DNA from: an uncultured Gemmatimonadales bacterium
Lineage (GTDB): Bacteria; Gemmatimonadota; Gemmatimonadetes; Gemmatimonadales; GWC2-71-9
NCBI GenBank assembly: GCA_963817715.1
Contig: CAWFPG010000004.1
Coordinates: 199,673-263,672, forward strand
Direction of reading: 5' to 3'
Length of the DNA: 64,000 nucleotides
Part shown: one piece after another, positions 3,401-51,963 of the stretch
Numbering within the stretch: position 1 is the first letter of the stretch
How the letters are laid out: every line of letters begins with the position of its first letter
Program-made: the position numbers and the translations under genes
The notes under the pieces: model-generated
Seen by the model: the letters and a program-made list of their open reading frames with translations, nothing else
Told to the model about the DNA's origin: nothing
Databases searched by the model: none

Positions 3401-4822
3401 ATGGCATTCCGCACCGAAAAGGACCCGCTCGGCGAGAAGCAGGTGCCGGCAGACGCGCTCTACGGCATCCAGACGCTCCGCGCCGTCGAGAACTATCCCA
3501 TCTCCGGCCTCCGGCCGCTGCCCGCCTTCGTCGACGCGGTGGTGCGGATCAAGAAGGCCGCCGCGCTGACCCACAAGGAGACCGGGCGTCTCGATGCGAC
3601 ACGGGCCGATGCGATCGTCGCGGCGGCCGACGAGGTGCTCGGTGGCCAGTACCGCGACCAGTTCGTGGTCGATCCCTATCAGGCCGGCGCCGGCACGTCG
3701 CACCACATGAACGTGAACGAGGTCCTGGCCAATCGCGCCAACGAGCTGCTCGGCGGCACGCGGGGCAGCTACACGCCGGTGCACCCGAACGACCATGTCA
3801 ACATGGCGCAGTCGACCAACGACGTGATCCCGACCGCGATGCGGCTCGCCTCGCTCGGTGCGCTCCCGGCGCTGCTCGAGGCGATGGACGGGTTGGCGGC
3901 ATCGTTCCTCGATCGTGGCGTGGCATTCGACGGGGTGCTCAAGTCGGGTCGCACCCACCTGCAGGACGCCACGCCGATCCGACTCGGCCAGGAATTCACC
4001 GCCTACGGTCACACCGTGGCGCGGCACCGGGCCAAGCTGGCCCAAGCGGCGACCTGGCTGCTGCCGATGAACATCGGCGGCAGCGCGGTGGGCACCGGGC
4101 TCAACGCCGAGCCGGCGTACCCGGCGCTGATGGTCAAGCACTTGCGAGCGATCACCGGGCTCGAGCTCGAGGTGAGCGAGGACCGGATCCAGCTGATGCA
4201 GTCGATGGGCGACATCGCCACGCTGAGCGGGGCGTTGCGAGCCTTCGTGCTCGACCTCTGCAAGATCGCCGACGACATCCGTCTGCTGGCCTCCGGACCG
4301 CGCACCGGCCTCGCCGAGATCAGGTTGCCCGAGGTCCAGCCGGGATCGAGCATCATGCCGGGGAAGATCAACCCCTCGATCGCCGAGATGGTGAACCAGG
4401 TCTGCTATCAGGCGCTGGGGCTCGACACCACGGTGGCGATGGCCGCGAAGGCCGGCCAACTCGAGCTCAACGTGATGATGCCGGTGATCACCCACAACAT
4501 CGTCTTCGCGCTGCAGATCGTGGCCAATGCGGTGCGAGTCTTCGACCAGCGCTGCATCAGCGGTGTCGAGGCCGACGAGGCGATGTGCGCCCATTGGCTG
4601 GAGCGCTCCCCGGCACTGGTCACCGCGCTGGCCCCCAAGATCGGCTACGCCGAGGCCGCCAAGCTGGCCAAGGAGGCGATCCGGACCGGCCAGACCGTCA
4701 AGGAGCTGGTGGTTGCCAAGCAGCTCCTGCAGGGCCGTGAACTGGAAGACGTGCTCGACCTGCGCGCGATGACGGAGCTGGGCGTGCCCGGCGCGGGAAA
4801 GGGCACAGCGGCCGGCGGGTGA
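3401..4822 (+). CDS. aspA: aspartate ammonia-lyase (class II fumarase/aspartase superfamily)
   Basis: N-terminus RTEKDPLGEKQVPADALYGIQTLRAVENYPISG is aspartase-like. Carries the superfamily signature GSSIMPGKINP. Confidence 0.8.
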   Translation: MAFRTEKDPLGEKQVPADALYGIQTLRAVENYPISGLRPLPAFVDAVVRIKKAAALTHKETGRLDATRADAIVAAADEVLGGQYRDQFVVDPYQAGAGTSHHMNVNEVLANRANELLGGTRGSYTPVHPNDHVNMAQSTNDVIPTAMRLASLGALPALLEAMDGLAASFLDRGVAFDGVLKSGRTHLQDATPIRLGQEFTAYGHTVARHRAKLAQAATWLLPMNIGGSAVGTGLNAEPAYPALMVKHLRAITGLELEVSEDRIQLMQSMGDIATLSGALRAFVLDLCKIADDIRLLASGPRTGLAEIRLPEVQPGSSIMPGKINPSIAEMVNQVCYQALGLDTTVAMAAKAGQLELNVMMPVITHNIVFALQIVANAVRVFDQRCISGVEADEAMCAHWLERSPALVTALAPKIGYAEAAKLAKEAIRTGQTVKELVVAKQLLQGRELEDVLDLRAMTELGVPGAGKGTAAGG

Positions 4823-5994
4823 GTGAGCCGGTGGGGCGGTGGCGGCAGCTGACGCTGCTGGCCACCGTCGAGCTCCTGGGGATGTCGGTGTGGTTCGCCG
4901 CCAGTGCCGTCAAGCCGGCGCTGGCGGCGAACCTTTCGCTTTCGGCGGCCCAGACCGGTTGGCTCACCTCCGGGGTGCAACTCGGCTTCGTGCTGGGCAC
5001 CCTGCTCGCCGCCGTGCTCAACCTCGCCGACATCGTCCCGGCGCGGCGCTATGTCGCCGCCTCGGCCCTGATGGCCGCGGTGGCCAACGCCGGGCTGCTG
5101 GTCGCCCCCGATTTCGCAACGGCAATCACCACCCGGATCCTCACCGGGGCCGCGCTCGCGGGGGTGTACCCGCCGGCGATGAAGATGGCGGCGACCTGGT
5201 TCCGGCAGGGGCGCGGTCTCGCGATCGGCACTGTGGTCGGGGCGCTCACCGCCGGCAAGGCGATCCCCTACCTGCTCGAGGGCCTCGGCACCCTCGATCT
5301 CGCGCGGGCCGTGCTGGTTCCCTCCGGGGCCGCGCTGGCCGCCGCGGTGCTGGTCGGTGTCGGCTATCGCGACGGGCCCTATGCCTTCCCGGCACGGCCG
5401 TTCTCCTGGGGGCTGACCCGGGTGGCGATGGCCGACCCGACCGTCCGGCGGGCCACCGCCGGCTATCTCGGCCACATGTGGGAACTCTATGCCTTCTGGG
5501 CCTGGATTCCCGGCTTCCTCGCCGCCTCGCTGGCGGTCCACGGCCGCTCCAGTGGACCGGCCAACCTGTGGGCCTTCGCAGTGGTCGCGATCGGGGCTGC
5601 CGGGGCGGTGTGGGGTGGGATCGCCGCCGACCGGATCGGTCGGCCGGCAGTGGTGCGCCGTGCGTTGGTGGTGAGCGGCGCCTGTGCGCTCCTCTCCCCG
5701 TTCCTCTTCAGCGGTCCGCTACCGCTGTTGGTGGTCGCCACGCTGATCTGGGGAGTCGCGGTGATCGCCGACTCGGCCCAGTTCTCGGCGATGGTGACCG
5801 AGCATGCCGCGCCACACGCGGTCGGCACCGCCCTCACCCTGCAGACCTCGCTCGGCTTCCTGCTCACGATCGTCACCATCCAGGGGGTCCCGGCAATGGC
5901 CGCGGCGCTGGGATGGCGGTGGGCGTTCGCGGCCCTGGCGTTGGGGCCGCTGGCGGGTCTCTGGGCGGTGCGCCGGGTCGCCCGCACCCCCTAG
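4819..5994 (+). CDS. MFS transporter
   Basis: 391 aa with about 12 hydrophobic segments. GTG start overlaps the aspA stop (GTGA). Confidence 0.7.
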   Translation: MSEPVGRWRQLTLLATVELLGMSVWFAASAVKPALAANLSLSAAQTGWLTSGVQLGFVLGTLLAAVLNLADIVPARRYVAASALMAAVANAGLLVAPDFATAITTRILTGAALAGVYPPAMKMAATWFRQGRGLAIGTVVGALTAGKAIPYLLEGLGTLDLARAVLVPSGAALAAAVLVGVGYRDGPYAFPARPFSWGLTRVAMADPTVRRATAGYLGHMWELYAFWAWIPGFLAASLAVHGRSSGPANLWAFAVVAIGAAGAVWGGIAADRIGRPAVVRRALVVSGACALLSPFLFSGPLPLLVVATLIWGVAVIADSAQFSAMVTEHAAPHAVGTALTLQTSLGFLLTIVTIQGVPAMAAALGWRWAFAALALGPLAGLWAVRRVARTP

Positions 5995-7732: not shown

Positions 7733-7816
7733 TGCCGAAGGGGGGACTCGAACCCCCACGGGCTTGCGCCCACTGCGCCCTGAACGCAGCGCGTCTACCA
7801 ATTCCACCACTTCGGC
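7733..7816 (-). tRNA. tRNA-Leu (anticodon CAG)
   Basis: The reverse complement folds as a type II tRNA. Acceptor GCCGAAG/CTTCGGC, anticodon arm CTGCG-TTCAGGG-CGCAG, long variable arm, T arm GGGGGTTCGAGTCCCCC. CCA is not encoded. Confidence 0.9.
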
Positions 7817-15997: not shown

Positions 15998-16074
15998 GAT
16001 GTAGACTCCTGGGTACTGGGTTCCGTGCAGCCGATAAAGATAACGACCGGGTCGGGCGTCTGGCAACCGATAGG

Positions 16075-21346
<5,272 letters not shown>

Positions 21347-21350
<4 letters not shown>

Positions 21351-22301
21351 CCACCGCGCGCGACCCGGCCTTCATCGCGGGACTCCGCGAGCGGCTCGCC
21401 GGGACGGTGCGCGACGCCGAGCCGCTGGGCCGCTGGTCGACCTACCGGATCGGTGGGCCGGCGACGGTGGTCTTCCCGGCGAACGCCGAGGACGTCGCGA
21501 TCGCGCTCCGGCACGCCGGCGAGGCCGGGGTGCCGTGGTTCGCGCTGGGGCTCGGCAGCAACCTCCTCTTTCCCGACCACGGCCTCGACGCCCTGGTGAT
21601 CCGGATCGGCAAGGGACTCGATCGCCTCGATCAGGACGGCGACCGCTGGCGGATCGGCGCAGGGATGCCGGCGCCGCTGGCGGCCAAGCGGACTGCGCAC
21701 GCCGGCTGGGGCGGGATCCACAAGATGGTCGGGGTGCCCGGCAGCGTCGGTGGCGGGGTCGTGATGAACGCCGGCTGCCACGGCGCCGAGTGGCGCGACG
21801 TGATCGAGTCGGTGGTGGTGGTCGACCCCGACGGGAACGACCGCGTGATCGCCGCGGCGGATGCCGGTTTCACCTATCGCCGGAGCGCGCTGGGCCATGT
21901 GGTGGTGCTCGAGACCACGGTCGACCTCCACCCCGCCGACAGCGCCGCCCTCGATGCCGAGACCGACGAGCTCTATCGCTGGCGCAAGGAGGGCACGCCG
22001 TTCAATCAGCCGTGCTGCGGCAGCGTCTTCAAGAATCCGGTGCTCCCCGACGACTGGGCGCGAGGCGCCGCGGACCAGCGGCCAGTTCATCGAGGCGACC
22101 GGGTGCAAGGGGCTGCGCGAGGGCGGGGCGGAGGTCTCGCCGATGCACGCCAACTACATCGTCAACACCGGCGGGGCCACGGCGGCCGACGTGGTGGCAC
22201 TGATGCGCAACGTGCGCGACCGGGTCGAGGCGCGCTGGGGCGTGCGGCTGGAGCCCGAGGTTAAGCTGATCGGGGCGGCGGGCGGGGCGGGGGAGATTTA
22301 G
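21347..22301 (+). pseudogene. murB: UDP-N-acetylenolpyruvoylglucosamine reductase, frame broken near 22058-22072
   Basis: GTG 21347 overlaps the carB stop. WSTYRIGGPATVVFPANAEDV...LGLGSNLLF...GSVFKNP is in one frame. SGQFIEATGCKGLREGGAEVSPMHANYIVNTGGATAADV is in the frame of ORF 21861. Confidence 0.85.
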
Positions 22302-22303
22302 GA

Positions 22304-22333
22304 TTGCGGATATCGCGGGGGGGGGGGTACGAT
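22304..22333 (+). promoter_or_regulatory. putative promoter TTGCGG - 18 nt (includes G11) - TACGAT for the low-GC cassette
   Basis: Hexamers read directly. The spacer length is set by the homopolymer. No experimental support. Confidence 0.3.
22317..22327. repeat. G11 homopolymer
   Basis: Counted directly (cgc + 11 g + tac). Lies 16 nt after the murB stop and 72 nt before the mini-protein ATG. Confidence 0.9.
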
Positions 22334-22398
22334 GGTTTGAGGTCGTCTTGTGTGATATGGAGATGGCCAGGATCATTTCCCCCGCTGAGGAGAATGTG

Positions 22399-22698
22399 AT
22401 GGAACACGTCCGATCGATTGCACTAAGTGGAGCCCGCCTTGGCCTTGCCGTTCTGGCGTTGGTCTTGGTCACCGGGGCAGAGGCTCAAGCCACGGACGGG
22501 CAAGGCGGCTGCTCGGCGGCGGATCCGGGTTGGTACTGCGCCACGGCCAGTTCGTTCGAGGGGACGAGCTACTGCATTCCGGGGCAGAGTGGCGGGTGTG
22601 AAACCTGTCATCACACCGGTGACACGGACGACAAGTGCTTCTACTCCGGTGGGCCGAAGCACACGGGGTACAAGGCCGAGGCGTATCCAGGCGCCTAG
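22399..22698 (+). CDS. secreted cysteine-rich mini-protein (99-aa precursor, about 69-aa mature, 6 Cys, one CXXCH motif), hypothetical
   Basis: GAGGAG lies 6 nt before ATG 22399. Sec-type signal MEHVRSIALSGARLGLAVLALVLVTGAEAQA. Mature part TDGQGGCSAADPGWYCATASSFEGTSYCIPGQSGGCETCHHTGDTDDKCFYSGGPKHTGYKAEAYPGA. Confidence 0.55.
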   Translation: MEHVRSIALSGARLGLAVLALVLVTGAEAQATDGQGGCSAADPGWYCATASSFEGTSYCIPGQSGGCETCHHTGDTDDKCFYSGGPKHTGYKAEAYPGA

Positions 22699-22711
22699 TC
22701 GCGGAGCCCGG

Positions 22712-23869
22712 ATGTTCCGCTGCCCAACGGTCGAGGACGCAATGTCACGACTCCGGCTCGCATTGGGGTCATGTGCGCAGGTCTGGACGCGAGCGACGCG
22801 ATGGGGAGGGTCTCTCTGGATCCGGAAACGGCATGGCCCAATATCGGTTCGAGTTCTGCGACTAATGCTCGTCGCGACTCTCGGCTGCGTTGGTTCCGAA
22901 GATCCTGGGCTCATGCCGATAGAGGTCAGTTCGTCTGTCCTATCCAGGAACTCTGCGGTCGGTCGAGCGAACTACCTCATGGCGCGGGGGCCATTCCTCT
23001 GGGTGACGGATGCCAGCGGGGAGCCGTTCCTTCACGTCATCGACCTCCGAAGTGGAGCCCTCCTTCATTCCTTGGGGCGACGAGGAGAAGGACCGGGAGA
23101 GTTCGCGTCGATGGGCAGGCCGCTCCCGAGTCCGGCGAGCCCGTACGGAATGCTTGCCTATGACGAAGACCTGAATCGACTCACCGATATTCAGCTCGAT
23201 TCGACCGGTGACGTCCGCATCGGGGCGTTGGCCAGCTTGCCCACGGCTCCGATGCCATCGGCCCTCACCTCATTCGGGAATGGGTACTTAGGCTGGGTTT
23301 CAGACAGCAATGCCAGGTGGATGATCATCCGTCGTGGCGAGTCCGGGCGGCGGCTTGTCGATGGCCCGCTGCTCGGCAATGGATCCGTGCCGTACTCGCA
23401 GCGTGTCCTCGCATCGGCAAATCTCAAAGTCTGTGTCAAGCCCGATCAAACCAAATTCGCGGTGCTTTACGGTTCGGCCGGACGCATCGAGCTGCACGAT
23501 TCGTCGGCAGCCCTGCTCGATTTGGCGGCGACGCCGGATTCGAGTAATGGCGATTTCGAATTGAAGGATGGAGTGGCCCGCTGGAATAGGCATCGCTACT
23601 ACTACTCGGATTGTGCGGCGACCGATCAATATCTGTTCGCCTTGTTTTCCGGACAGGTTGAGGGGGTGGGAGTCGAGATGGCCTATGCCGGGGATCGCGT
23701 GCAGGTTTTCGACTGGTCCGGGGCGTTGCGCGGTGTGCTTGCGCTGCCCTTTAGGGTCGCTCGGATGGCGGTCGATGCAGAACAGCGGAGCCTGTACGGA
23801 TCGGGCACTGACGGGGAGACGATCTATCGTTTCAGTATCCCCGCGGAGTTCCAGGGAGTTGGCCGCTGA
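22712..23869 (+). CDS. beta-propeller-like periplasmic protein or lipoprotein (6-bladed TolB-like / arylsulfotransferase-like fold suspected), hypothetical; start uncertain
   Basis: Repeated strand-like motifs: FLWVTDASGEPFLHVIDLRSGALLHSLG, YLFALFSG, VQVFDWSGALRGVLALP, and the terminal SLYGSGTDGETIYRFSI. There is a possible signal or anchor RKRHGPISVRVLRLMLVATLGC. Candidate ATGs are 22712 (GGAG upstream), 22742 and 22865. The track ORF from 22427 overlaps the mini-protein gene and is rejected upstream of 22712. Confidence 0.5.
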   Translation: MFRCPTVEDAMSRLRLALGSCAQVWTRATRWGGSLWIRKRHGPISVRVLRLMLVATLGCVGSEDPGLMPIEVSSSVLSRNSAVGRANYLMARGPFLWVTDASGEPFLHVIDLRSGALLHSLGRRGEGPGEFASMGRPLPSPASPYGMLAYDEDLNRLTDIQLDSTGDVRIGALASLPTAPMPSALTSFGNGYLGWVSDSNARWMIIRRGESGRRLVDGPLLGNGSVPYSQRVLASANLKVCVKPDQTKFAVLYGSAGRIELHDSSAALLDLAATPDSSNGDFELKDGVARWNRHRYYYSDCAATDQYLFALFSGQVEGVGVEMAYAGDRVQVFDWSGALRGVLALPFRVARMAVDAEQRSLYGSGTDGETIYRFSIPAEFQGVGR

Positions 23870-23892
23870 GCACCCGCCCCATTGCCGTCAGG

Positions 23893-24606
23893 ATGATTGA
23901 CCGAGCGACCATCATAGCGGTGGTTCTGGTGCTCGGCGTTCTCGGTGTCCGGGCCGTCCGCCATTCGGGATTCACGCAGCCGAGCGCACTGCGGGATGCG
24001 AGCGACATCGCTTCAGGCAAATCCGATCAACGCACACCGTCGGGGGTGAGGCTCTCTCGACTCGATTTGCGGCGTCTTGCCTCGACCGACCTCCTGCTCG
24101 GTGATTCCGCCGCCCCAGTGCCTGTCGTGGTCTTCTCCGACTACTCCTGTGGTTGGTGTGCGAGGTACCAGGCCTCGCTCGACTCGCTATTGGATCGCTA
24201 TCCAGGGATTGTAAGCGTGGTCTTCAGGCCGCTTCTGCTCGACTCTGGCGCCTTGGGCGCCATCGACGTGCATATGGGGGCGGCCTGCGCGGCCGAGCAG
24301 GGTGTGTTCGCGGAGTATCATCGCGCGGCCTACTCGAATCAGCAGGCAGTTGGTACTCGCAACGGCTGGATGAGGATCGGCGAGGCTGCTCCTGTGCCGG
24401 ACTTGAAGGAATTTGAACGCTGCGTGCTGAGCGAACGGTATCGTGAAATGATCGTGGCCAGCACGAATGAGGCCCATCGGCTCGGGTTCGTCACGACTCC
24501 TGCGTCGATCATTGGTCTTCACCCAATTGTCGGCCGCCTGACCTTCACGGTCCTTGATTCCCTGGTGAAGGAGCAGCTCGATCGACTGCGGGCAGGATAC
24601 TCCTAG
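23893..24606 (+). CDS. membrane-anchored DsbA-family thiol:disulfide oxidoreductase (CGWC active site)
   Basis: N-terminal TM segment IIAVVLVLGVLGV. Thioredoxin-fold core PVVVFSDYSCGWCARYQASLDSLLDRYPG...VFRPLLL. C-terminal part GFVTTPASIIG resembles the cis-Pro loop region. Confidence 0.75.
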   Translation: MIDRATIIAVVLVLGVLGVRAVRHSGFTQPSALRDASDIASGKSDQRTPSGVRLSRLDLRRLASTDLLLGDSAAPVPVVVFSDYSCGWCARYQASLDSLLDRYPGIVSVVFRPLLLDSGALGAIDVHMGAACAAEQGVFAEYHRAAYSNQQAVGTRNGWMRIGEAAPVPDLKEFERCVLSERYREMIVASTNEAHRLGFVTTPASIIGLHPIVGRLTFTVLDSLVKEQLDRLRAGYS

Positions 24607-24622
24607 GCCCTCTCTCGCGGTC

Positions 24623-24675
24623 GCGCCCCCAGGGGGCGGGGGCGCTGTAGTCCCTCGCTCCCCTCGGGACGAGGG
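24623..24675 (+). terminator. two stacked GC hairpins closing the low-GC cassette (GCGCCCCC..GGGGGCGC; CCCTCGcTCCCctcGGGACGAGGG)
   Basis: Read directly, 17 nt after the DsbA-like stop. No T tail. Confidence 0.45.
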
Positions 24676-24734
24676 TGACGGTGTTCCGGCCGCCACGACG
24701 CAATGTCGGGTATCCCCATCGGAGAGCCCCGCGC

Positions 24735-25645
24735 ATGCGCCGTATCCTGCCTGTCCTGTTCGCCGTCATCATCGCCGCCTGCGGCGGTTCCTCGCCGACC
24801 GGTCCGTCCGGTCCCGGCGGCGGGTCGAACGTCTTCTCCGCCTCGATCGACGGCACGGCCTGGTCGGCGCCGTCGACGGCGATCAGCTCGGCGAGCAACA
24901 CCGGGTCGATCCCGGGTGGGATCCTCTTCACCGGCACCACCACTGTCGGCACCCAGGCGCGGTCGCTGATCCTGTCGCTCGACCGGATCAAGGGACCCGG
25001 CACCTATCCGCTGGGAGTCAACACCGGGACCACCGCGGGCGGCACCCTCACCATGACCTTCGGCTCGGCATCGTGGTGGACCCCGCTCAACGGCAAGTCG
25101 GGCACCCTCACCATCACCTCGCTCACCAGCAGCCGGGTGGTGGGCACCTTCAGCGGTGAGCTGGCCCCGCTGGCGGGTGGCACCGGCAACGTCCACATCA
25201 CCAACGGCACGTTCGATGTGCCGCTCAACCCCGGCTACGCCCCCCGCCGGCCGACGATGAAGGCTCATGGGTCAAGGCGACGATCGGGGGCGCCGACTGG
25301 AACGGGGCGACGGTGATCGGCATCGGTGGCGGGACCGGGACCGCCGCGATCACCGCGACCACCGACGACTATGTGGTGACGGTCACCGCGGGGCCACTCT
25401 CCGGACCGACCAGTGGTCCGCTCACCGATGCCGGCACCGTGCCGATCCGCACGGTGCGGGTCCAGCGCGCCGGCACCACCAATGCCTGGGGTGGACTGAG
25501 CGGTGACGTGGGCACCCTCACCATCACGTCGATCACCGCGACGCGGATGGCGGGGAGCTTCTCCGGCACGCTGGCGCCGATCTCCGGTGGAGGCGCCGGC
25601 CTGGTCGTGCTCAACGGCCAGTTCGATGTGAAGATCGGGCAGTGA
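24735..25645 (+). pseudogene. lipoprotein with an internally duplicated beta-rich domain; frame broken at C6 run 25240-25245
   Basis: Lipobox MRRILPVLFAVIIAAC. Domain 1 ends GTLTITSLTSSRVVGTFSGELAPLAGGTGNVHITNGTFDVPL. Domain 2 (frame of ORF 25313, readable back to PADDEGSWVKATIGGADWNGA) ends GTLTITSITATRMAGSFSGTLAPISGGGAGLVVLNGQFDVKI. Confidence 0.6.
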
Positions 25646-25767
25646 CGATAGACGATAGACGATAGACGATAGACGTGTGGTCCGCGGACGACTGGTGCTC
25701 GGATCCGGGCTCGAGTGCTCGTGATCGAATGCGTCTATCGTCTCTCGTCTCTCGTCTCTCGTCTATC
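25644..25767. repeat. nested palindromic element B: (GACGATA)x4 array, 54-nt core, (GTCTATC)(GTCTCTC)x3(GTCTATC) array
   Basis: Read directly. Fills the gap between convergent stop codons (TGA 25643-25645 and the complement of TAG at 25763-25765). The arms pair about 25/28. The core contains the palindrome GTCCGCGGAC. Confidence 0.8.
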
Positions 25768-26452
25768 GCGCCAGGCGATATCCCGTCTTCCGCACCGTGA
25801 TGATGTGCACCGGGTTGGCGGGATCCTCTTCGAGCTTCCGTCGCAGCTCGAGGATGTGCACGTCGACGGTGCGCGAGATCACGTCGGCTTCGTACTGCCA
25901 GACCTCGTCGAGCAGCTCGGCTCGGGTGGCGACCCGGCCGTCGCGATGGAGGAGCGCGACCAGCAGGTCGAACTCCTTGGGGCGGAGCGCGACTGCCTCT
26001 CCATCACGGGTGACCTCGTGGGTGGCTCGGTCGACGGCCACCGTGCCGAATTGCCAGCGGTCCGGGGCGGGATGCGATTCCTCGGGTGGGGCGTGGCGGC
26101 GCAGCATTGCGGCCACCCGGGCCAGCAGCTCGGGGAGCGAGAACGGCTTGACCACGTAGTCGTCGGCGCCATGGCGGAAGCCGCGCAGTCGGTCGGCTTC
26201 CGAGCCCCGCGCCGAGAGGATAAGCACCGGGACCTCGCGGCCCTCGTCGCGGAGCTGTCGCAGCACGTCGATGCCCTCCATGCCGGGGAGCATGATGTCG
26301 AGGATGAGGAGGTGAGGGTCCCAGTGTCGGGCCTGGCCAAGGCCCTTCTCGCCCGTCGCCTCGACACGCACCTCGTAGCCATCGTGGGCGAGGTTGAGCC
26401 GCAGTCCCTCGGCCAGGGTCTGGTTGTCCTCGATCACCAGGATCCTTCGCAT
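25763..26452 (-). CDS. OmpR/PhoB-family response regulator
   Basis: MRRILVIEDNQTLAEGL...LLILDIMLPGMEGIDV receiver domain, and a winged-helix output domain ending VHIITVRKTGYRLAR. Confidence 0.9.
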   Translation of the reverse strand: MRRILVIEDNQTLAEGLRLNLAHDGYEVRVEATGEKGLGQARHWDPHLLILDIMLPGMEGIDVLRQLRDEGREVPVLILSARGSEADRLRGFRHGADDYVVKPFSLPELLARVAAMLRRHAPPEESHPAPDRWQFGTVAVDRATHEVTRDGEAVALRPKEFDLLVALLHRDGRVATRAELLDEVWQYEADVISRTVDVHILELRRKLEEDPANPVHIITVRKTGYRLAR

Positions 26453-28074
26453 CAGGTCGCCTCCGCCGCGGCCATCAGCCGCACCTCGATTCGTGCTCCA
26501 TGGTCCAGATCGCCCACGACGGCATCGCCCCCGTGGAGCCGTGCCAGGTAGCGCACCACCGCCAGTCCGAGGCCGGTGCCGCCGTCGTCGCCACGGGCAT
26601 AGGGCAACCAGACCCGCTCACGCTCGGCGCTGGGGATCCCGGGGCCCTCGTCCTCGACCACCAGCAGCAGCGCGTCGTCGCGATGATCGACCACGATCCG
26701 CAGCCGCTGGCCCTCGGGGCCGTGGCGGATCGCGTTGTCGAGCAGGTTGACAAGAATCCGCCGCACTGCGCTGCCATCGACAATTGCCGTCGGGGGACCG
26801 AGATGATCGATTTCGACCCGCATGTGGCGGTCGGCGAGCAGCGGCTTGAAGGCGGCAATGACCTCATCGACCAGGCGGACGACATCCTCGGGCCCCGTCT
26901 CGAGCTGTTCGTCGGCACGCGCCATCCGCGCCGATGCCAGGATGTTCTCGACCATGTCGCCGAGGCGGCGGGTCTCCCGGGTGATCGTCTCGAGCGCCGC
27001 GCGTCGCGCTGCCGGTTCGACAATCCGCTCGAGCATCAGCGTCTCGGCATAGAGATGGATGTTGGCGAGTGGGGTGCGCAGCTCGTGTGACACCGACGAG
27101 GTGAACTCGTGCCGCATTCGCGCCAGGGTGAGGGTGCGCCAGGCCAGTGCGGCGGTGCCGGCGAGCAGCAGCAGCGCCAGGCCGATCACCGCCGCGACAC
27201 GGGGACCGGGGGCCGGTGGATAGCCACCCGGCATGAGGTAGGGAATGGCGTCGGCGCCAACGGTGACCACCACGCGACCCGAGAGGGGGGCCAAGGCGAC
27301 CTGGTCCATCGTCCAGCCCTCGAGTGGCTCGTTGTAGTCGAGCAGCGTGATGCCATCGCCGGTCTCCACGTGCACGGCGATCGGAACGATGTGGCTGCTC
27401 GGTCGCTTCTCGGGCAGCGAGTCGTACATCATCTCGAAGAACGCCTCGGTCCGCTGCGGCGCCGGGAGCAGCACGGCGGTGCGGTACTCGTAGAGCGGCA
27501 CCTCGAACCCGATCCATCCGGCGCCCGCCCGGTTGGGTTGGAGCACCGCCAGGGTGGTGTCGGCACCGCGGGCAACGACCGTGGCGCGGAAGGTCAACCG
27601 CTTCGGCAGTGAGTCGGCCAGTCGTGCGTCGAGTCGTGCGACCAGCGTGCTGTCGACCGTGCCGTCGCTGGAAGTCAGCCGCCACCCGAGCGAGTCGCCC
27701 ACGAAGAAGTTGCGCGGCATGACCTTGGCCGGTCCCGTTTCATAGAGCTGTGCCGCGACCCGCGAGGTCCACTCACTCACCGTGCCGGTCGCCGGCGCCC
27801 GGGAGGCATCCTGCGCGGCAAGCAGCAGGTTCCGGAAGGTGTACCAGGTTTCCGAACCGTACAGTTCGCCGTAGTGCCCCGACATGTAGGCGGCGTGGTC
27901 GCGAAGTGTCTCGTCGGCCGTGGCTCGGTGGCGCACCATCGACTGCCACAGCGTCCAGCCGCCCCACGCCACCATGGCGATGGCCAGCACAAACGCCGCC
28001 ATCACGAGGCGTTCGGTGTGCTTCATCGCCGGGGCCAGCGGCCAGCGGCGGCGCGGGTTTCGCGATCCGGACAT
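26452..28074 (-). CDS. sensor histidine kinase (periplasmic sensor, HisKA, HATPase_c)
   Basis: H-box FTSSVSHELRTPLANI, N-box LVNLLDNAIRHG, G-boxes EDEGPGIP and GTGLGLAVV. The stop overlaps the RR start by 1 nt. ATG 28026 (MKHTERL...) is an alternative start. Confidence 0.85.
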   Translation of the reverse strand: MSGSRNPRRRWPLAPAMKHTERLVMAAFVLAIAMVAWGGWTLWQSMVRHRATADETLRDHAAYMSGHYGELYGSETWYTFRNLLLAAQDASRAPATGTVSEWTSRVAAQLYETGPAKVMPRNFFVGDSLGWRLTSSDGTVDSTLVARLDARLADSLPKRLTFRATVVARGADTTLAVLQPNRAGAGWIGFEVPLYEYRTAVLLPAPQRTEAFFEMMYDSLPEKRPSSHIVPIAVHVETGDGITLLDYNEPLEGWTMDQVALAPLSGRVVVTVGADAIPYLMPGGYPPAPGPRVAAVIGLALLLLAGTAALAWRTLTLARMRHEFTSSVSHELRTPLANIHLYAETLMLERIVEPAARRAALETITRETRRLGDMVENILASARMARADEQLETGPEDVVRLVDEVIAAFKPLLADRHMRVEIDHLGPPTAIVDGSAVRRILVNLLDNAIRHGPEGQRLRIVVDHRDDALLLVVEDEGPGIPSAERERVWLPYARGDDGGTGLGLAVVRYLARLHGGDAVVGDLDHGARIEVRLMAAAEAT

Positions 28075-46329: not shown

Positions 46330-46390
46330 ACCGCGCCCACGGATGCCGGAGCGCGGGTTGCTCAGGCGTCCCGACGCGGAGTGCCTGCGG

Positions 46391-46417
46391 ACGCCGCTCC
46401 CCTCGGGGGGGCGGCGT
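46391..46417 (+). terminator. GC hairpin after the receptor gene (ACGCCGCTCCCC-tcg-GGGGGGGCGGCGT)
   Basis: Read directly. One imperfect position, no T tail. Confidence 0.45.
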
Positions 46418-46424
46418 TCGTGCG

Positions 46425-46493
46425 TCGGGGCGACCCTGCCGGGGATGCTCCGCGCCGGGGTGTCGACCGCCTCGGGGCGACCCTGTCGGGATG
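46425..46493 (+). repeat. 22-nt direct repeat TCGGGGCGACCCTG(C/T)CGGG(G)ATG x2, 47 nt apart; the second copy contains the radC start codon
   Basis: Read directly. A related sequence, CTCGAGGGTCGCCCCTGTCGGGG, occurs at 6006-6028. Confidence 0.5.
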
Positions 46494-49338: not shown

Positions 49339-49746
49339 ATGGCCACCTACCTCCTCAAGACCGAGCCGTCGACCTACTCGTGGGACGAGTTGGTGCGCGA
49401 GCGCCGGACCGTCTGGGACGGCATCCGCAATGCCGCCGCCCTGATCGCCATTCGCCAGATGAAGCGCGGCGACGAGGCGATCATCTATCACTCCGGCAAG
49501 GAGCGGGCGATCGTCGGGATCGCGAAGATCGTGAAGGGCGCCTATCAGGATCCCAAGCACGACGACCCCAAGCTGGCCGTGGTCGACGTGGTGCCGGTGC
49601 GTGCGGTCGATCCGCCGGTGCCGCTGGCGTCGATCAAGGCGGAGCCGAAGCTCAAGCAGTTCCCGCTGGTGCGGATCTCGCGACTCTCGACGATGCCGGT
49701 GAGCCCGGCGGAGCGGAAGGTGCTGGCGAAGCTGGGGGTGACCTGA
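49339..49746 (+). CDS. EVE (PUA-like, DUF55) domain protein
   Basis: MATYLLKTEPSTYSWDELVRERRTVWDGIRNAAALIAIRQMKRGDEAIIYHSG... Confidence 0.8.
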   Translation: MATYLLKTEPSTYSWDELVRERRTVWDGIRNAAALIAIRQMKRGDEAIIYHSGKERAIVGIAKIVKGAYQDPKHDDPKLAVVDVVPVRAVDPPVPLASIKAEPKLKQFPLVRISRLSTMPVSPAERKVLAKLGVT

Positions 49747-49747
49747 C

Positions 49748-49900
49748 GGAGGGCGGAGGACGGAGGACAGGGGCCTTCAGCCGCGGCCGTCAGGCCGCGG
49801 TGATGCGGGACCCAGATTGAGCCAGTCGTCCACATCCCCGCGGCCTGACGGCCGCGGCTGGAGATCATCCGTCGTTCCGTCCTCCGTCCTCCGCCGCTCC
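49748..49900. repeat. nested palindromic element C: GGAGGGC(GGAGGAC)x2 array, perfect 23-nt inner inverted repeat, (GTCCTCC)x2GCCGCTCC array
   Basis: Read directly. The outer arms 49748-49768 and 49879-49900 pair with one bulge. The inner arm CAGCCGCGGCCGTCAGGCCGCGG (49778-49800) is the exact reverse complement of 49838-49860, and each inner arm is itself self-complementary. The element starts 2 nt after the EVE stop. Confidence 0.85.
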
Positions 49901-49917: not shown

Positions 49918-49929
49918 CCGACTATATTC
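49918..49929 (+). promoter_or_regulatory. CCGACTATATTC motif with a TATATT -10-like hexamer; putative leaderless promoter of uvrB
   Basis: TATATT at 49923-49928 ends 6 nt before ATG 49935, with no SD. Same 12-mer as at 6054-6065. Confidence 0.35.
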
Positions 49930-49934
49930 CCCGG

Positions 49935-51963
49935 ATGCCCACGTTCGAGGTCCGCGCCCCGTTCCAGCCTGCGGGGGACCAGCCCCGCGCCATCGCCGAG
50001 CTCACGGCGGGGCTGGCGCGTGGCGACAAGTACCAGACCCTCCTCGGGGTGACCGGCAGCGGCAAGACGATGACGCTGGCGCACACGATCGCGGCCCACG
50101 GCAAGCCGACCCTGGTGATGAGCCACAACAAGACCCTGGCCGCGCAGCTCTACGGTGAGCTCAAGCAGTTCATGCCCGTCAACGCGGTCGAGTACTTCGT
50201 CTCGTACTACGACTACTACCAGCCCGAGGCCTACGTCCCCTCGACCGACGTCTACATCGAGAAGGACGCCTCGATCAACCAGGACATCGAGTCGTTGCGG
50301 CTGCGGGCCACGTCGTCGTTGATGGAGCGCGACGACGTGGTGATCGTCGCCACCGTGTCGGCGATCTACGGCCTCGGCGATCCGGCGGCCTACCGCGCGC
50401 TGATGGTGTCGATCGCGCGCGGCGAGCGGCGCGGACGCGACGGGATCCTGCAGGACCTGGTGGCGATCCAGTACCAGCGCAACGATGCGTCGTTCGAGCC
50501 CGGCACCTTCCGGGTTCGCGGCGACACAATCGAGATCTATCCCGCCTACGACGAGCAGGCGATCCGGATCGAGCTCTGGGGCGACGAGGTGGAGCGGATC
50601 AGCCGCTTTCACCCGCTCACCGGCCACCCGATCGCCCAACTCGACCGCACCGCGATCTACCCGGCCAAGCACTTCGTGACCGAGCGGGCAACGATCGAGC
50701 GCGCCGTGGCGCGGATCCGCGCGGAACTGGCCGAGCGGCTCACGATGTTGCGCTCGGCCGGCAAGCTCCTCGAGGCGCAGCGGCTCGAGTCGCGCACCAC
50801 CTTCGACGTGGAGATGATGCTCGAGGTCGGCACCTGCGCCGGGATCGAGAACTACTCCCGCCACCTCGCCGGTCGCGCGGAGGGCGAGCGTCCGGCCTGC
50901 CTGATCGATTACTTCCCGGCCGACTTCCTGGTGGTGGTCGATGAGAGCCACGTCTCGCTGCCGCAGATCAACGGGATGTTCAACGGCGACCGGGCCCGCA
51001 AGACGACGCTGGTCGAGTACGGCTTCCGGCTGCCGAGTGCGCTCGACAACCGGCCGCTCCGCTTCGAGGAGTTCATGACGCTGGTGCCGCAGATGATCAA
51101 CGTCTCGGCCACCCCGGGCGACCTCGAGCTGCAGCTGTCGGGCGGCGTGGCGGTCGAGCAGATCATTCGCCCCACCGGCCTGGTCGATCCCGAGGTGGAG
51201 ATCCGGCCGGTCACGGGGCAGGTCGACGACCTGCTCGCCGAGATCCGCAAGCGCGAGCAGGCGCGCGAGCGGGTGCTGGTCACCACCCTCACCAAGCGGA
51301 TGTCGGAGGACCTCACCGACTACCTCCAGCAGGCCGGGGTCCGGGTCCGCTACCTGCACAGCGACATCGACGCGATCGAGCGGGTGGAGATCCTGCGCGG
51401 GCTCCGGCTCGGCGACTTCGACGTGCTGGTGGGCATCAACCTGCTGCGCGAGGGCCTCGACCTGCCCGAGGTGTCGCTCGTCGCGATTCTCGACGCCGAC
51501 CAGGAGGGATTCCTGCGGAGCGACCGGTCGCTGATCCAGACCGTGGGCCGCGCGGCGCGCAACGTCAACGGCCGGGCGATTCTCTATGCCGACCGGATCA
51601 CCGGCTCGATGCGCCGCGCGCTCGACGAGATGGACCGTCGTCGCGAGCGGCAGCGGGCGTTCAACATCGAGCACGACATCACGCCGATGTCGATCGTGAA
51701 GTCGCTCGACGAGGTGCGGCTCTCGACCAAGGTCGCCGACTCGCGGACCGAGCGGCCCGACGCCCGGCAAGGCGGCCCGGTCGAAGGCGCTCGACCTGCA
51801 CGACCCGGCCCAGCGGGCCGCGGCCATGGCCGCCCTGGAACAGCAGATGCGCGAGGCGGCGGCCAACCTCGAGTTCGAGATCGCCGCACTGCTGCGTGAC
51901 CAGCTCAACGAGCTGCGAGCCGCCTCGGCGCCCGATGTCCGACGCCCGGTGGCACGGCGATGA
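49935..51963 (+). pseudogene. uvrB: excinuclease ABC subunit B, frame broken near 51755-51768
   Basis: [14 protein letters not shown], Walker [25 protein letters not shown], helicase motifs. The C-terminal UVR domain [29 protein letters not shown] reads in the +1 frame and stops at TGA 51961-51963. Confidence 0.9.

Follow-up and report, generated by a model that had tools for sequence, protein, structure and literature searches.

Inverted heptamer arrays abutting the stop codons of convergent genes in a Gemmatimonadales genome and their counterparts in related genomes

Results

Structure of element B

In the stretch of 64,000 nucleotides (nt) analyzed here as a whole (the window; contig CAWFPG010000004.1 of an uncultured Gemmatimonadales bacterium), a lipoprotein gene (24675..25645, + strand) and a gene for an OmpR/PhoP-type response regulator with Response_reg and Trans_reg_C domains (25763..26452, - strand) converge on a gap occupied by two inverted arrays of 7-nt repeats, which we call element B. 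The left arm (25644..25675, + strand) is a perfect tandem heptamer array, (GACGATA)x4.6, with 100% matches, and the right arm (25732..25768, + strand) reads CGTCTAT, CGTCTCT three times, CGTCTAT and CG, with a period of 7 and 5.3 copies. Direct reading of the sequence, Tandem Repeats Finder and a repeat search all agreed on these arrays, which a first-pass annotation made from the letters had proposed for 25644-25767. The right-arm unit is the reverse complement of the left one with A->C in the three central units, a substitution also described in that annotation, and the outer CGTCTAT units are exact complements of the left unit. The core between the arms (25676..25731) measures 56 nt, not 54 nt as annotated, and contains the 10-nt palindrome reported previously, GTCCGCGGAC (25680-25689), as well as an imperfect sub-hairpin around GGATCC (25701-25706).

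The longest pairing of the arms joins 25644-25675 to 25732-25763, 32 nt on each side, with 29/32 positions paired (91%) and three mismatches 7 nt apart. The stem originally described thereby keeps its three mismatches and grows from about 28 bp. Six more registers, offset by multiples of 7, pair at 89-94%, as expected if the arms can slip by whole units. On the left, the array opens on the G of the lipoprotein-gene TGA (25643-25645), where it had been placed. On the right, it includes the stop codon of the response regulator (CTA at 25763-25765 on the + strand, TAG on the - strand), at which it had been thought to end, and extends 3 nt past it into the last codon of that gene. The element overlaps both stop codons, and the description of arrays filling the convergent gap was borne out.

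The RNA fold of 25641-25768 was unusually stable on both strands (z = -5.49 for + and -5.48 for -; 0/200 shuffles as stable), with hairpin energies of -68.7 and -57.9 kcal/mol and a stable, G+C-rich stem, and the DNA fold gave z = -5.03. Across 100 first-order Markov simulations of the window, no inverted heptamer pair appeared and the mean was 0.2 arrays, against five heptamer arrays and two strict inverted pairs observed. These simulations and the fold z-scores exclude a chance origin of the arrays. At gathering scores, Rfam 15 matched a tRNA at 7733-7816 as the sole hit in the window and nothing at element B; a permissive Rfam scan of 25550-25850 returned a chance-level miRNA match alone (E = 0.83), and a distant BLAST of the element against plasmids gave no match.

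Two further elements of the same design

Two other sites in the window carry elements of a common design with element B and of unrelated sequence, so the likeness claimed earlier, in design only, holds for all three. Element A (16073..16173) consists of (GGTCAAT)x4.3, a 44-nt core and a degenerate (TTCACCA)x3.9 array, and lies between the divergent genes rpmB (start codon 15995-15997, - strand) and gmd (ATG at 16198). A promoter-like TTGCCA-18-TATCTT for rpmB (16066..16037) adjoins it, its -35-like hexamer starting 7 nt from the array. Element C (49745..49893) has (GACGGAG)x3.4 and (TCCGTCC)x2.6 arms around an inner 21-bp hairpin (49780-49800 with 49838-49858). Its left array opens in the TGA of an EVE-domain gene (49744-49746), and a conserved promoter-like block of uvrB (TATATT, 49923) and the uvrB ATG (49935) follow directly 3' of it.

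The TATATT is conserved about 7 nt before the uvrB ATG, with a CCGAAGA...CCGA block ahead of it, in the window (49923-49937) and at loci L103, L002 and L007 of other genomes. This arrangement suggests that the uvrB mRNA is leaderless or nearly so.

The same sites in related genomes

Contigs of relatives, all of them metagenome assemblies, were retrieved through homologs of the response regulator and the EVE protein; they are designated by locus (L numbers), and L089 and L103 belong to one genome. The design of element B was present at the gap between the response regulator and the lipoprotein gene in five related genomes, with different units, copy numbers and cores. When site B is read from the response regulator to the lipoprotein gene, with E for ACGAGAG and T for ACGATAG, the window shows T E E E T, the core, and T T T T. 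In L099 (response regulator 90% identical), both arms carry E E T E in mirror order and form a perfect 31-bp stem, and in L101 (87%) T T E E faces E E E E, with 4-5 units per arm. The unit differs further in L089 (89%), where AAGAGAG x2 stands against ACAGAGA x6.4, and in L100 (88%), with GAGAGAA x3 and a 7-nt loop. A third unit family, degenerate GGCGGAG/GGACGGA, is found in L111/L112 (87%), where the fold is weak (z about -1.9). The core is conserved neither in sequence nor in length, ranging from 7 to about 76 nt among orthologs, and the stop codon itself differs among genomes (TAG, TGA or TAA). In every such genome the arrays start and stop within a few nucleotides of both stop codons.

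Site A carries GGTGAAT units in the window, GGTGAAG in L089 and GGAAGTC in L096 and L102, and was empty in L090-L095. Site C carries GACGGAG in the window, CGACAGG in L103 and GCTTCGA in L105-L110, and no element was found there in L002, L007 and L104. Taking the three sites together, the arrays abut stop codons or promoters, at -6 to +2 nt, at every gene-proximal end examined, and the elements are kept at the same sites although other intergenic DNA of these genomes is unalignable.

The EVE gene of L104 (2164-2698) lies on the opposite strand to relA and uvrB, all three being co-directional in the window; its protein is 84% identical, the arrangement resembles a local single-gene inversion, and no heptamer element is present there.

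Among the six assemblies with the L105-type element, identity is 99.94% or more and the arrays do not differ; L111 and L112 are likewise identical at site B. The comparison of copy number is uninformative, except for showing that near-clonal genomes do not have hypervariable arrays.

No heptamers were found at the response-regulator end in L096, L098 and L102, in which the response regulator converges on murB. A metagenome scan with the histidine kinase encoded next to the response regulator found a single true ortholog, the distant L081, with no array after GYRLAR*, and a scan of genome contigs with the TolB-like protein (22427-23869) found no relative. The seven Gemmatimonadota loci from a UvrB scan (L001-L007) held no heptamer arrays.

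In L096, L098 and L102, the stop codon of the response regulator sits in the loop of an ordinary hairpin, CCGCGAGC-TGAC-GCTCGCGG, and tandem repeats cover the end of the gene (L096 10690-10741, L098 4522-4622, L102 10690-10775). A 15-nt unit occurs in two copies in L096 and five in L098, despite an identical response-regulator protein, and a 25-nt unit occurs in three copies in L102, so that repeat copy number is variable at the gap between the response regulator and murB. These 15-nt and 25-nt repeats are another rapidly changing repeat type at the same gene end.

Co-variation of the arms and turnover of the units

All left arms were compared, pair by pair, with the reverse complements of all right arms. 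Arms of one genome or of one unit family showed high complementarity, and those of different families essentially none: at site C, arms matched at 17/18, 24/26 and 26/28 positions within genomes versus 3/3 to 8/10 across them, and sites A and B each fell into two complementarity groups. Unit changes were concordant in the two arms at all three sites, from GGTGAAT to GGTGAAG at A, from ACGAGAG to AAGAGAG/AACAGAG at B, and from GACGGAG to GACGGGC/GACAGGC at C. Such parallel changes imply that the arms evolve in concert, and the match of left and right arms within but not between genomes indicates that they co-evolve.

Each arm has also been homogenized separately, in that runs of variant units yield periodic transversion mismatches (elements A and B of the window and site B of L089). 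Runs of identical variant units and copy numbers spread from 2 to 6.4 suggest slippage, and the mirrored E E T E order in L099 looks like copying from arm to arm. Additionally, 7-8 G-U pairs make the fold of the gmd-sense strand 13-15 kcal/mol more stable at site A in both L096 and L102, a hint of selection on the gmd-sense RNA.

In almost every element (A-C of the window; L089, L096, L099-L103 and L111), the purine-rich arm comes first and the pyrimidine-rich arm second, 5' to 3' on either strand, and many units include GAC or GTC. Neither the purine-first nor the GAC/GTC trend is significant, given about six independent families of units.

Heptamer arrays in the clade and beyond

Strict period-7 arrays occurred at 7.8 per 100 kb in the window alone and at 10.2 per 100 kb in the clade, a density inflated by repeated sampling of the same three sites; the values were 0 in other Gemmatimonadota (114 kb) and 0.56 in other phyla (1.25 Mb; 73 other-phylum control loci from the UvrB scan). 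Arrays of period 8 reached about 1, 0 and 0.08 per 100 kb in the clade, other Gemmatimonadota and other phyla, respectively, and periods 8, 10 and 11 were rare in all groups. Period 7 is specifically enriched in this Gemmatimonadales clade.

In a sensitive scan, the only Gemmatimonadota loci with inverted period-7 pairs were the window, L089/L103, L096, L099, L101 and L105. Outside Gemmatimonadota one pair was found, in the Omnitrophota metagenome-assembled genome (MAG) L008 (JAFGJL010000077.1, 16596-16669), where (ATAGCGT)x4.5 and (CTAAACG)x4.7 form a hairpin with a 6-nt loop. This hairpin fills the groES-groEL spacer, opening in the groES TAG and closing just before the groEL ribosome-binding site.

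The Omnitrophota hairpin shares the design of the window elements, in an unrelated phylum and at 52% G+C.

Solitary arrays, intergenic and without an inverted partner, were found in L103 (7032-7091; x9.5, GGACAGA/GGACGGA), L105 (7659-7683 and 7703-7743) and L102 (8064-8096). The existence of such arrays implies that the 7-nt periodicity does not depend on there being a hairpin. The window region upstream of radC (about 46330-46480), orthologous to the solitary-array region, had no array. In the sequence compared, each unit was limited to its own locus, with the exception of GGACGGA, which recurs in the solitary array of L103; apart from that unit, no second copy of a unit plus core was found in the 64-kb window or in the 41 kb compared from the genome of L089 and L103.

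Discussion

A proposed origin and role of element B

From the observed structure, positional conservation, unit turnover, arm co-variation, stop-codon abutment and clade-level period-7 enrichment, we infer a slippage mechanism, a way in which the arms are re-matched and a role at the RNA level. In the reading that we prefer, and to which we give an even chance, element B would be an RNA hairpin at the 3' ends of both converging transcripts, acting as a termination aid or as a block to 3' exonucleases, with arms enlarged by heptanucleotide slippage. Hairpins would be set directly on stop codons in this Gemmatimonadales clade, and the clade would have a strong bias to 7-nt slippage. Since a short proto-repeat on one side of a stem is matched by its complement on the opposite side, both arms could expand. 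Fast unit turnover within each arm would then give rise to runs of variant units and periodic mismatches, and the complementarity of the arms would be restored by pairing selection, by intrastrand template switching (quasipalindrome correction) or by both. Growth would be bounded by selection on flanking functional sequence, so that the arrays would end at stop codons or, in elements A and C, at a promoter. What is said here of slippage and template switching draws on general knowledge of these processes.

A mutational tendency of the lineage, slippage that favors 7-nt units, best accounts for the heptamer period, because solitary arrays exist and unpaired surplus units are tolerated. The inverted pairing, in turn, is best explained by arrays that grew inside the two arms of a pre-existing stem, and the concordant changes of the arms require either pairing selection or copying between them. 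A role at RNA 3' ends is favored for element B because hairpins on stop codons are the local norm. Furthermore, every end examined exactly abuts a stop codon or a promoter block, which fits growth held in check by selection on the functional sequence next to it.

Several observations weigh against this reading. No T-run follows either arm on either strand, a terminator scan of 24500-27000 returned 0 sites, and the same window has a canonical hairpin plus TTTT terminator after rplQ. Element A lies between divergent promoters and the Omnitrophota hairpin between two cistrons, which implies that the class is not defined by termination and that one function does not obviously cover all its members. 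These observations weaken the bidirectional, terminator-like role proposed in the first-pass annotation. Selection for a perfect stem also looks weak, given the periodic mismatches (3/5 units in element B and 3/4 in element A of the window, always transversions unable to form G-U pairs), the four units without a partner in one arm of L089 at site B, and the weak fold of L111. Finally, the strand asymmetry of folding through G-U pairs was inconsistent across the elements overall.

Comparison with known repeat systems

The closest published precedent of element B is the set of convergent GGGAATC pairs (GGGANTN) of Xanthomonas campestris and X. axonopodis, genomes with about 185 arrays each (Rehm et al. 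2015; PMC4692102). Those arrays are mostly four units long, 89-93% are intergenic, and 70-75 convergent pairs per genome are capable of forming a stem-loop or cruciform (PMC4692102). Their positions are strongly biased toward the stop codon of the upstream open reading frame (ORF), next to it or overlapping it, and site and type (single or inverted pair) are kept between species while length and sequence vary (PMC4692102). Transcript starts and stops coincide with repeats capable of forming G-quadruplexes more often than with control repeats, and the repeats, whose function is not known, have been interpreted through G-quadruplex formation (PMC4692102).

Element B resembles these pairs in its tandem 7-nt units, with at least two per array (x4.6 and x5.3), in its convergent arrays on opposite strands, 91% complementary and 56 nt apart, and in its intergenic position overlapping stop codons, which recurs in five orthologous genomes and at site C. 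As in Xanthomonas, site and pair type are kept among relatives (B in L099, L101, L089, L100 and L111; A in L089, L096 and L102; C in L103 and L105). In contrast to the single G-rich, genome-wide unit of Xanthomonas, the units here are locus-specific (GACGATA, GGTCAAT, GACGGAG) and have no G3 tracts; moreover, the unit has been replaced in both arms in parallel between relatives, and the phylum is Gemmatimonadota. What appears to be new is the occurrence of the Xanthomonas architecture in a different phylum, built from locus-specific units and accompanied by direct evidence of the co-evolution of its arms. Our literature searches turned up no paper on such repeats in Gemmatimonadota, and GGGAATC as a query gave primer noise only.

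Long simple sequence repeats of heptanucleotides are over-represented in prokaryotes, and slippage has been proposed as their origin, according to two papers that cite this survey (Mrazek et al. 2007, via PMC4679880 and PMC4692102). In Beggiatoaceae, sets of TAACTGA lie upstream of start codons, with a single inverted set reported (PMC4679880). As far as these accounts go, such repeats, including the cyanobacterial ones, share with ours a favored period of 7, an intergenic location and a lineage-specific abundance; they are for the most part direct arrays, built of a few units used genome-wide, whereas those described here are paired, inverted and locus-specific.

Like bidirectional terminators, element B offers a stable symmetric stem-loop right after two converging stop codons, folding in both transcripts. 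Unlike intrinsic terminators, it has no U-tract, its stem of about 30 bp and 56-nt core are far larger, its arms are tandem repeats, and the terminator scan was negative. The missing U-tract places it outside the usual definition of an intrinsic terminator. Repetitive extragenic palindromic sequences and their composites (REP/BIME/REPIN) are intergenic and palindromic, often lie just past stop codons, and can stabilize the upstream mRNA; together with MITEs (miniature transposable elements with inverted repeats), they form families of conserved sequence with many copies per genome and a cognate transposase (RAYT for REPINs). Element B is likewise intergenic, palindromic and located at stop codons. 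Elements A-C, in contrast to both kinds of family, have no common sequence family and no target-site duplication, so that, in the sequence compared, element B looks like neither a MITE nor a REP-type family. The Foldback transposons of eukaryotes (FB, Galileo) are kilobase-scale elements with transposases, whose inverted arms are made of variable-number tandem subrepeats. In the features compared, the likeness to them lies in inverted arms of short tandem repeats, and the difference is that nothing here indicates mobility.

Alternative explanations

The main rival to the RNA 3'-end hairpin, and one that is quite possible, is a non-functional, self-perpetuating palindromic microsatellite without any RNA role. 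Here, slippage would expand repeats in any unconstrained intergenic DNA of this lineage, hairpin-templated template switching would copy one arm onto the other, and a deletion bias would remove the rest, leaving the element to span the gap as far as the first base under selection. Solitary arrays without a partner, grossly unequal arms (2 vs 6.4 units in L089) and tolerated periodic transversion mismatches all fit this account, as do the decay in L111 and the absence of elements from L090, L002 and L007. Elements occupy 5', 3' and intercistronic contexts, the mirrored order of variants in L099 is what arm copying would be expected to produce, and the close abutment on genes at every end examined (-6 to +2 nt) also speaks for it. 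Retention of the same three sites amid otherwise unalignable intergenic DNA is harder to reconcile with a non-functional repeat, and so are the G-U-biased mismatches on the gmd-sense strand of L096 and L102. In Xanthomonas, intergenic regions bearing the repeats exceed controls in the conservation of gene context (PMC4692102), which likewise speaks against this account. Template switching in these organisms is, furthermore, an assumption taken from work on Escherichia coli. That element B acts as DNA, as a cruciform, a protein platform (bound, for instance, by the OmpR-type regulator encoded next to it or by a nucleoid protein) or a sink for supercoiling where transcription units converge or diverge, seems improbable to us. 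Folding as DNA is likewise predicted to give an unusually stable hairpin, the element is symmetric with both strands alike, and element A lies between divergent promoters, where negative supercoiling would favor extrusion; at element B, positive supercoiling from convergent transcription opposes it. No sequence-specific binder fits, since the units differ by locus and by relative, and similar elements adjoin unrelated genes. Half-sites of the OmpR family are spaced roughly 10-11 bp apart, to which a period of 7 bp is mismatched.

It is more improbable still that element B is a MITE or foldback-type mobile element, with inverted repeats of tandem subrepeats, inserted at the stop codons. Its terminal inverted repeats of subrepeats recall the eukaryotic Foldback elements, and site A, occupied in other genomes, is empty in L090. 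No target-site duplication was found at A, B, C or their orthologs, with merely a weak TA at A; the sequence compared held no second copy of unit plus core, the GGACGGA unit of L103 excepted; and neither plasmids nor Rfam gave a match. Different sequences at one site, with graded similarity of the units, imply evolution in place and not repeated insertion. A MITE reading was disfavored after target-site duplications and extra copies had been sought and none found. Formation of a G-quadruplex or i-motif, as proposed for the heptamers of Xanthomonas and Nostoc, is scarcely credible for element B, where analogy with the published case (PMC4692102) is all that speaks for it. Neither GACGATA nor GACGAGA has G-runs, and no unit seen has the G3 tract needed in every repeat; the G-quadruplex reading was rejected on unit composition.

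A broader proposal, which we regard as doubtful, is that heptamer-array hairpins constitute an unrecognized cross-phylum class of self-renewing transcript-boundary elements, present in Xanthomonas, Gemmatimonadales and at least one Omnitrophota spacer. The stem would be rebuilt from 7-nt units by slippage, re-symmetrized by hairpin-templated copying and grown up to the stop codon. Termination, read-through or the stability of the mRNA might be tuned by the number of units, perhaps in concert with the terminating ribosome, which would have to melt the outer units. If this were true, the orthologous series would be natural evidence of quasipalindrome template switching shaping bacterial intergenic regions.

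Significance

Among the long microsatellites of bacteria, those with heptanucleotide units are the most over-represented, and for the pairs that hug stop codons in Xanthomonas the G-quadruplex idea has been the only explanation so far. The same architecture built from locus-specific units unable to form quadruplexes implies that the hairpin and the 7-nt period are conserved, not the sequence. With its mirrored variants, periodic mismatches and parallel replacement of units, the orthologous series offers a rare natural record of the concerted evolution of hairpin arms, which could separate selection on RNA structure from template-switch conversion. In practical terms, these elements mark gene ends and promoter boundaries in a poorly studied phylum, and they are a source of assembly and annotation errors, such as spurious ORF calls within arrays.

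Flanking genes and neighborhood

The lipoprotein gene is an ortholog of genes of 302-303 amino acids (aa) in L089, L100 and L101, with a signal peptide and an A-C-G-G lipobox. The + strand gene next to element B is the C-terminal part of this lipoprotein gene of roughly 300 aa, frameshifted in the assembly; its product ends in ...KIGQ* in the window and in ...RIGQ* in L089. The C-terminus of the response regulator, GYRLAR*, is intact in the window, as in L081, and the operon also includes a histidine kinase gene (26452-28074) upstream of the regulator gene. The nearest homologs of the response regulator carry the label Gemmatimonadales, and the UvrB of the window, 84% identical to that of a Gemmatimonadota MAG, assigns the organism to this phylum.

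The frame of the lipoprotein gene changes near 25.25 kb, and its ortholog in L089 is intact. Similarly, carB (17900-21350) has a frame change near 19.63 kb and an off-frame stretch near 18.36-18.54 kb, with an intact ortholog in L089. These patterns suggest assembly indel errors and not pseudogenes, since the break hits an essential gene.

The interval from murB to the response regulator (21350-25645 in the window) differs in gene content among relatives, with nothing in L096, DUF4440 and AraC genes in L090, the lipoprotein gene only in L089 and L101, and TolB-like, DsbA and lipoprotein genes in the window. The window genes of this interval fall below the cut-off for third-position G+C (GC3 > 0.80), which the neighboring genes pass. 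The variable gene content and low GC3 place element B at the edge of a variable island.

Elsewhere in the window, a hairpin with a perfect 18-bp stem (GGTTCGCCGCCAGTGCCG ... CGGCGCTGGCGGCGAACC) and TTTCGCTTTC after it lies at 4892-4933, just past a gene that ends at 4822 and within a mechanically called ORF (4819-5994). This hairpin probably serves as a terminator, and if so the following gene would start downstream of its called position.

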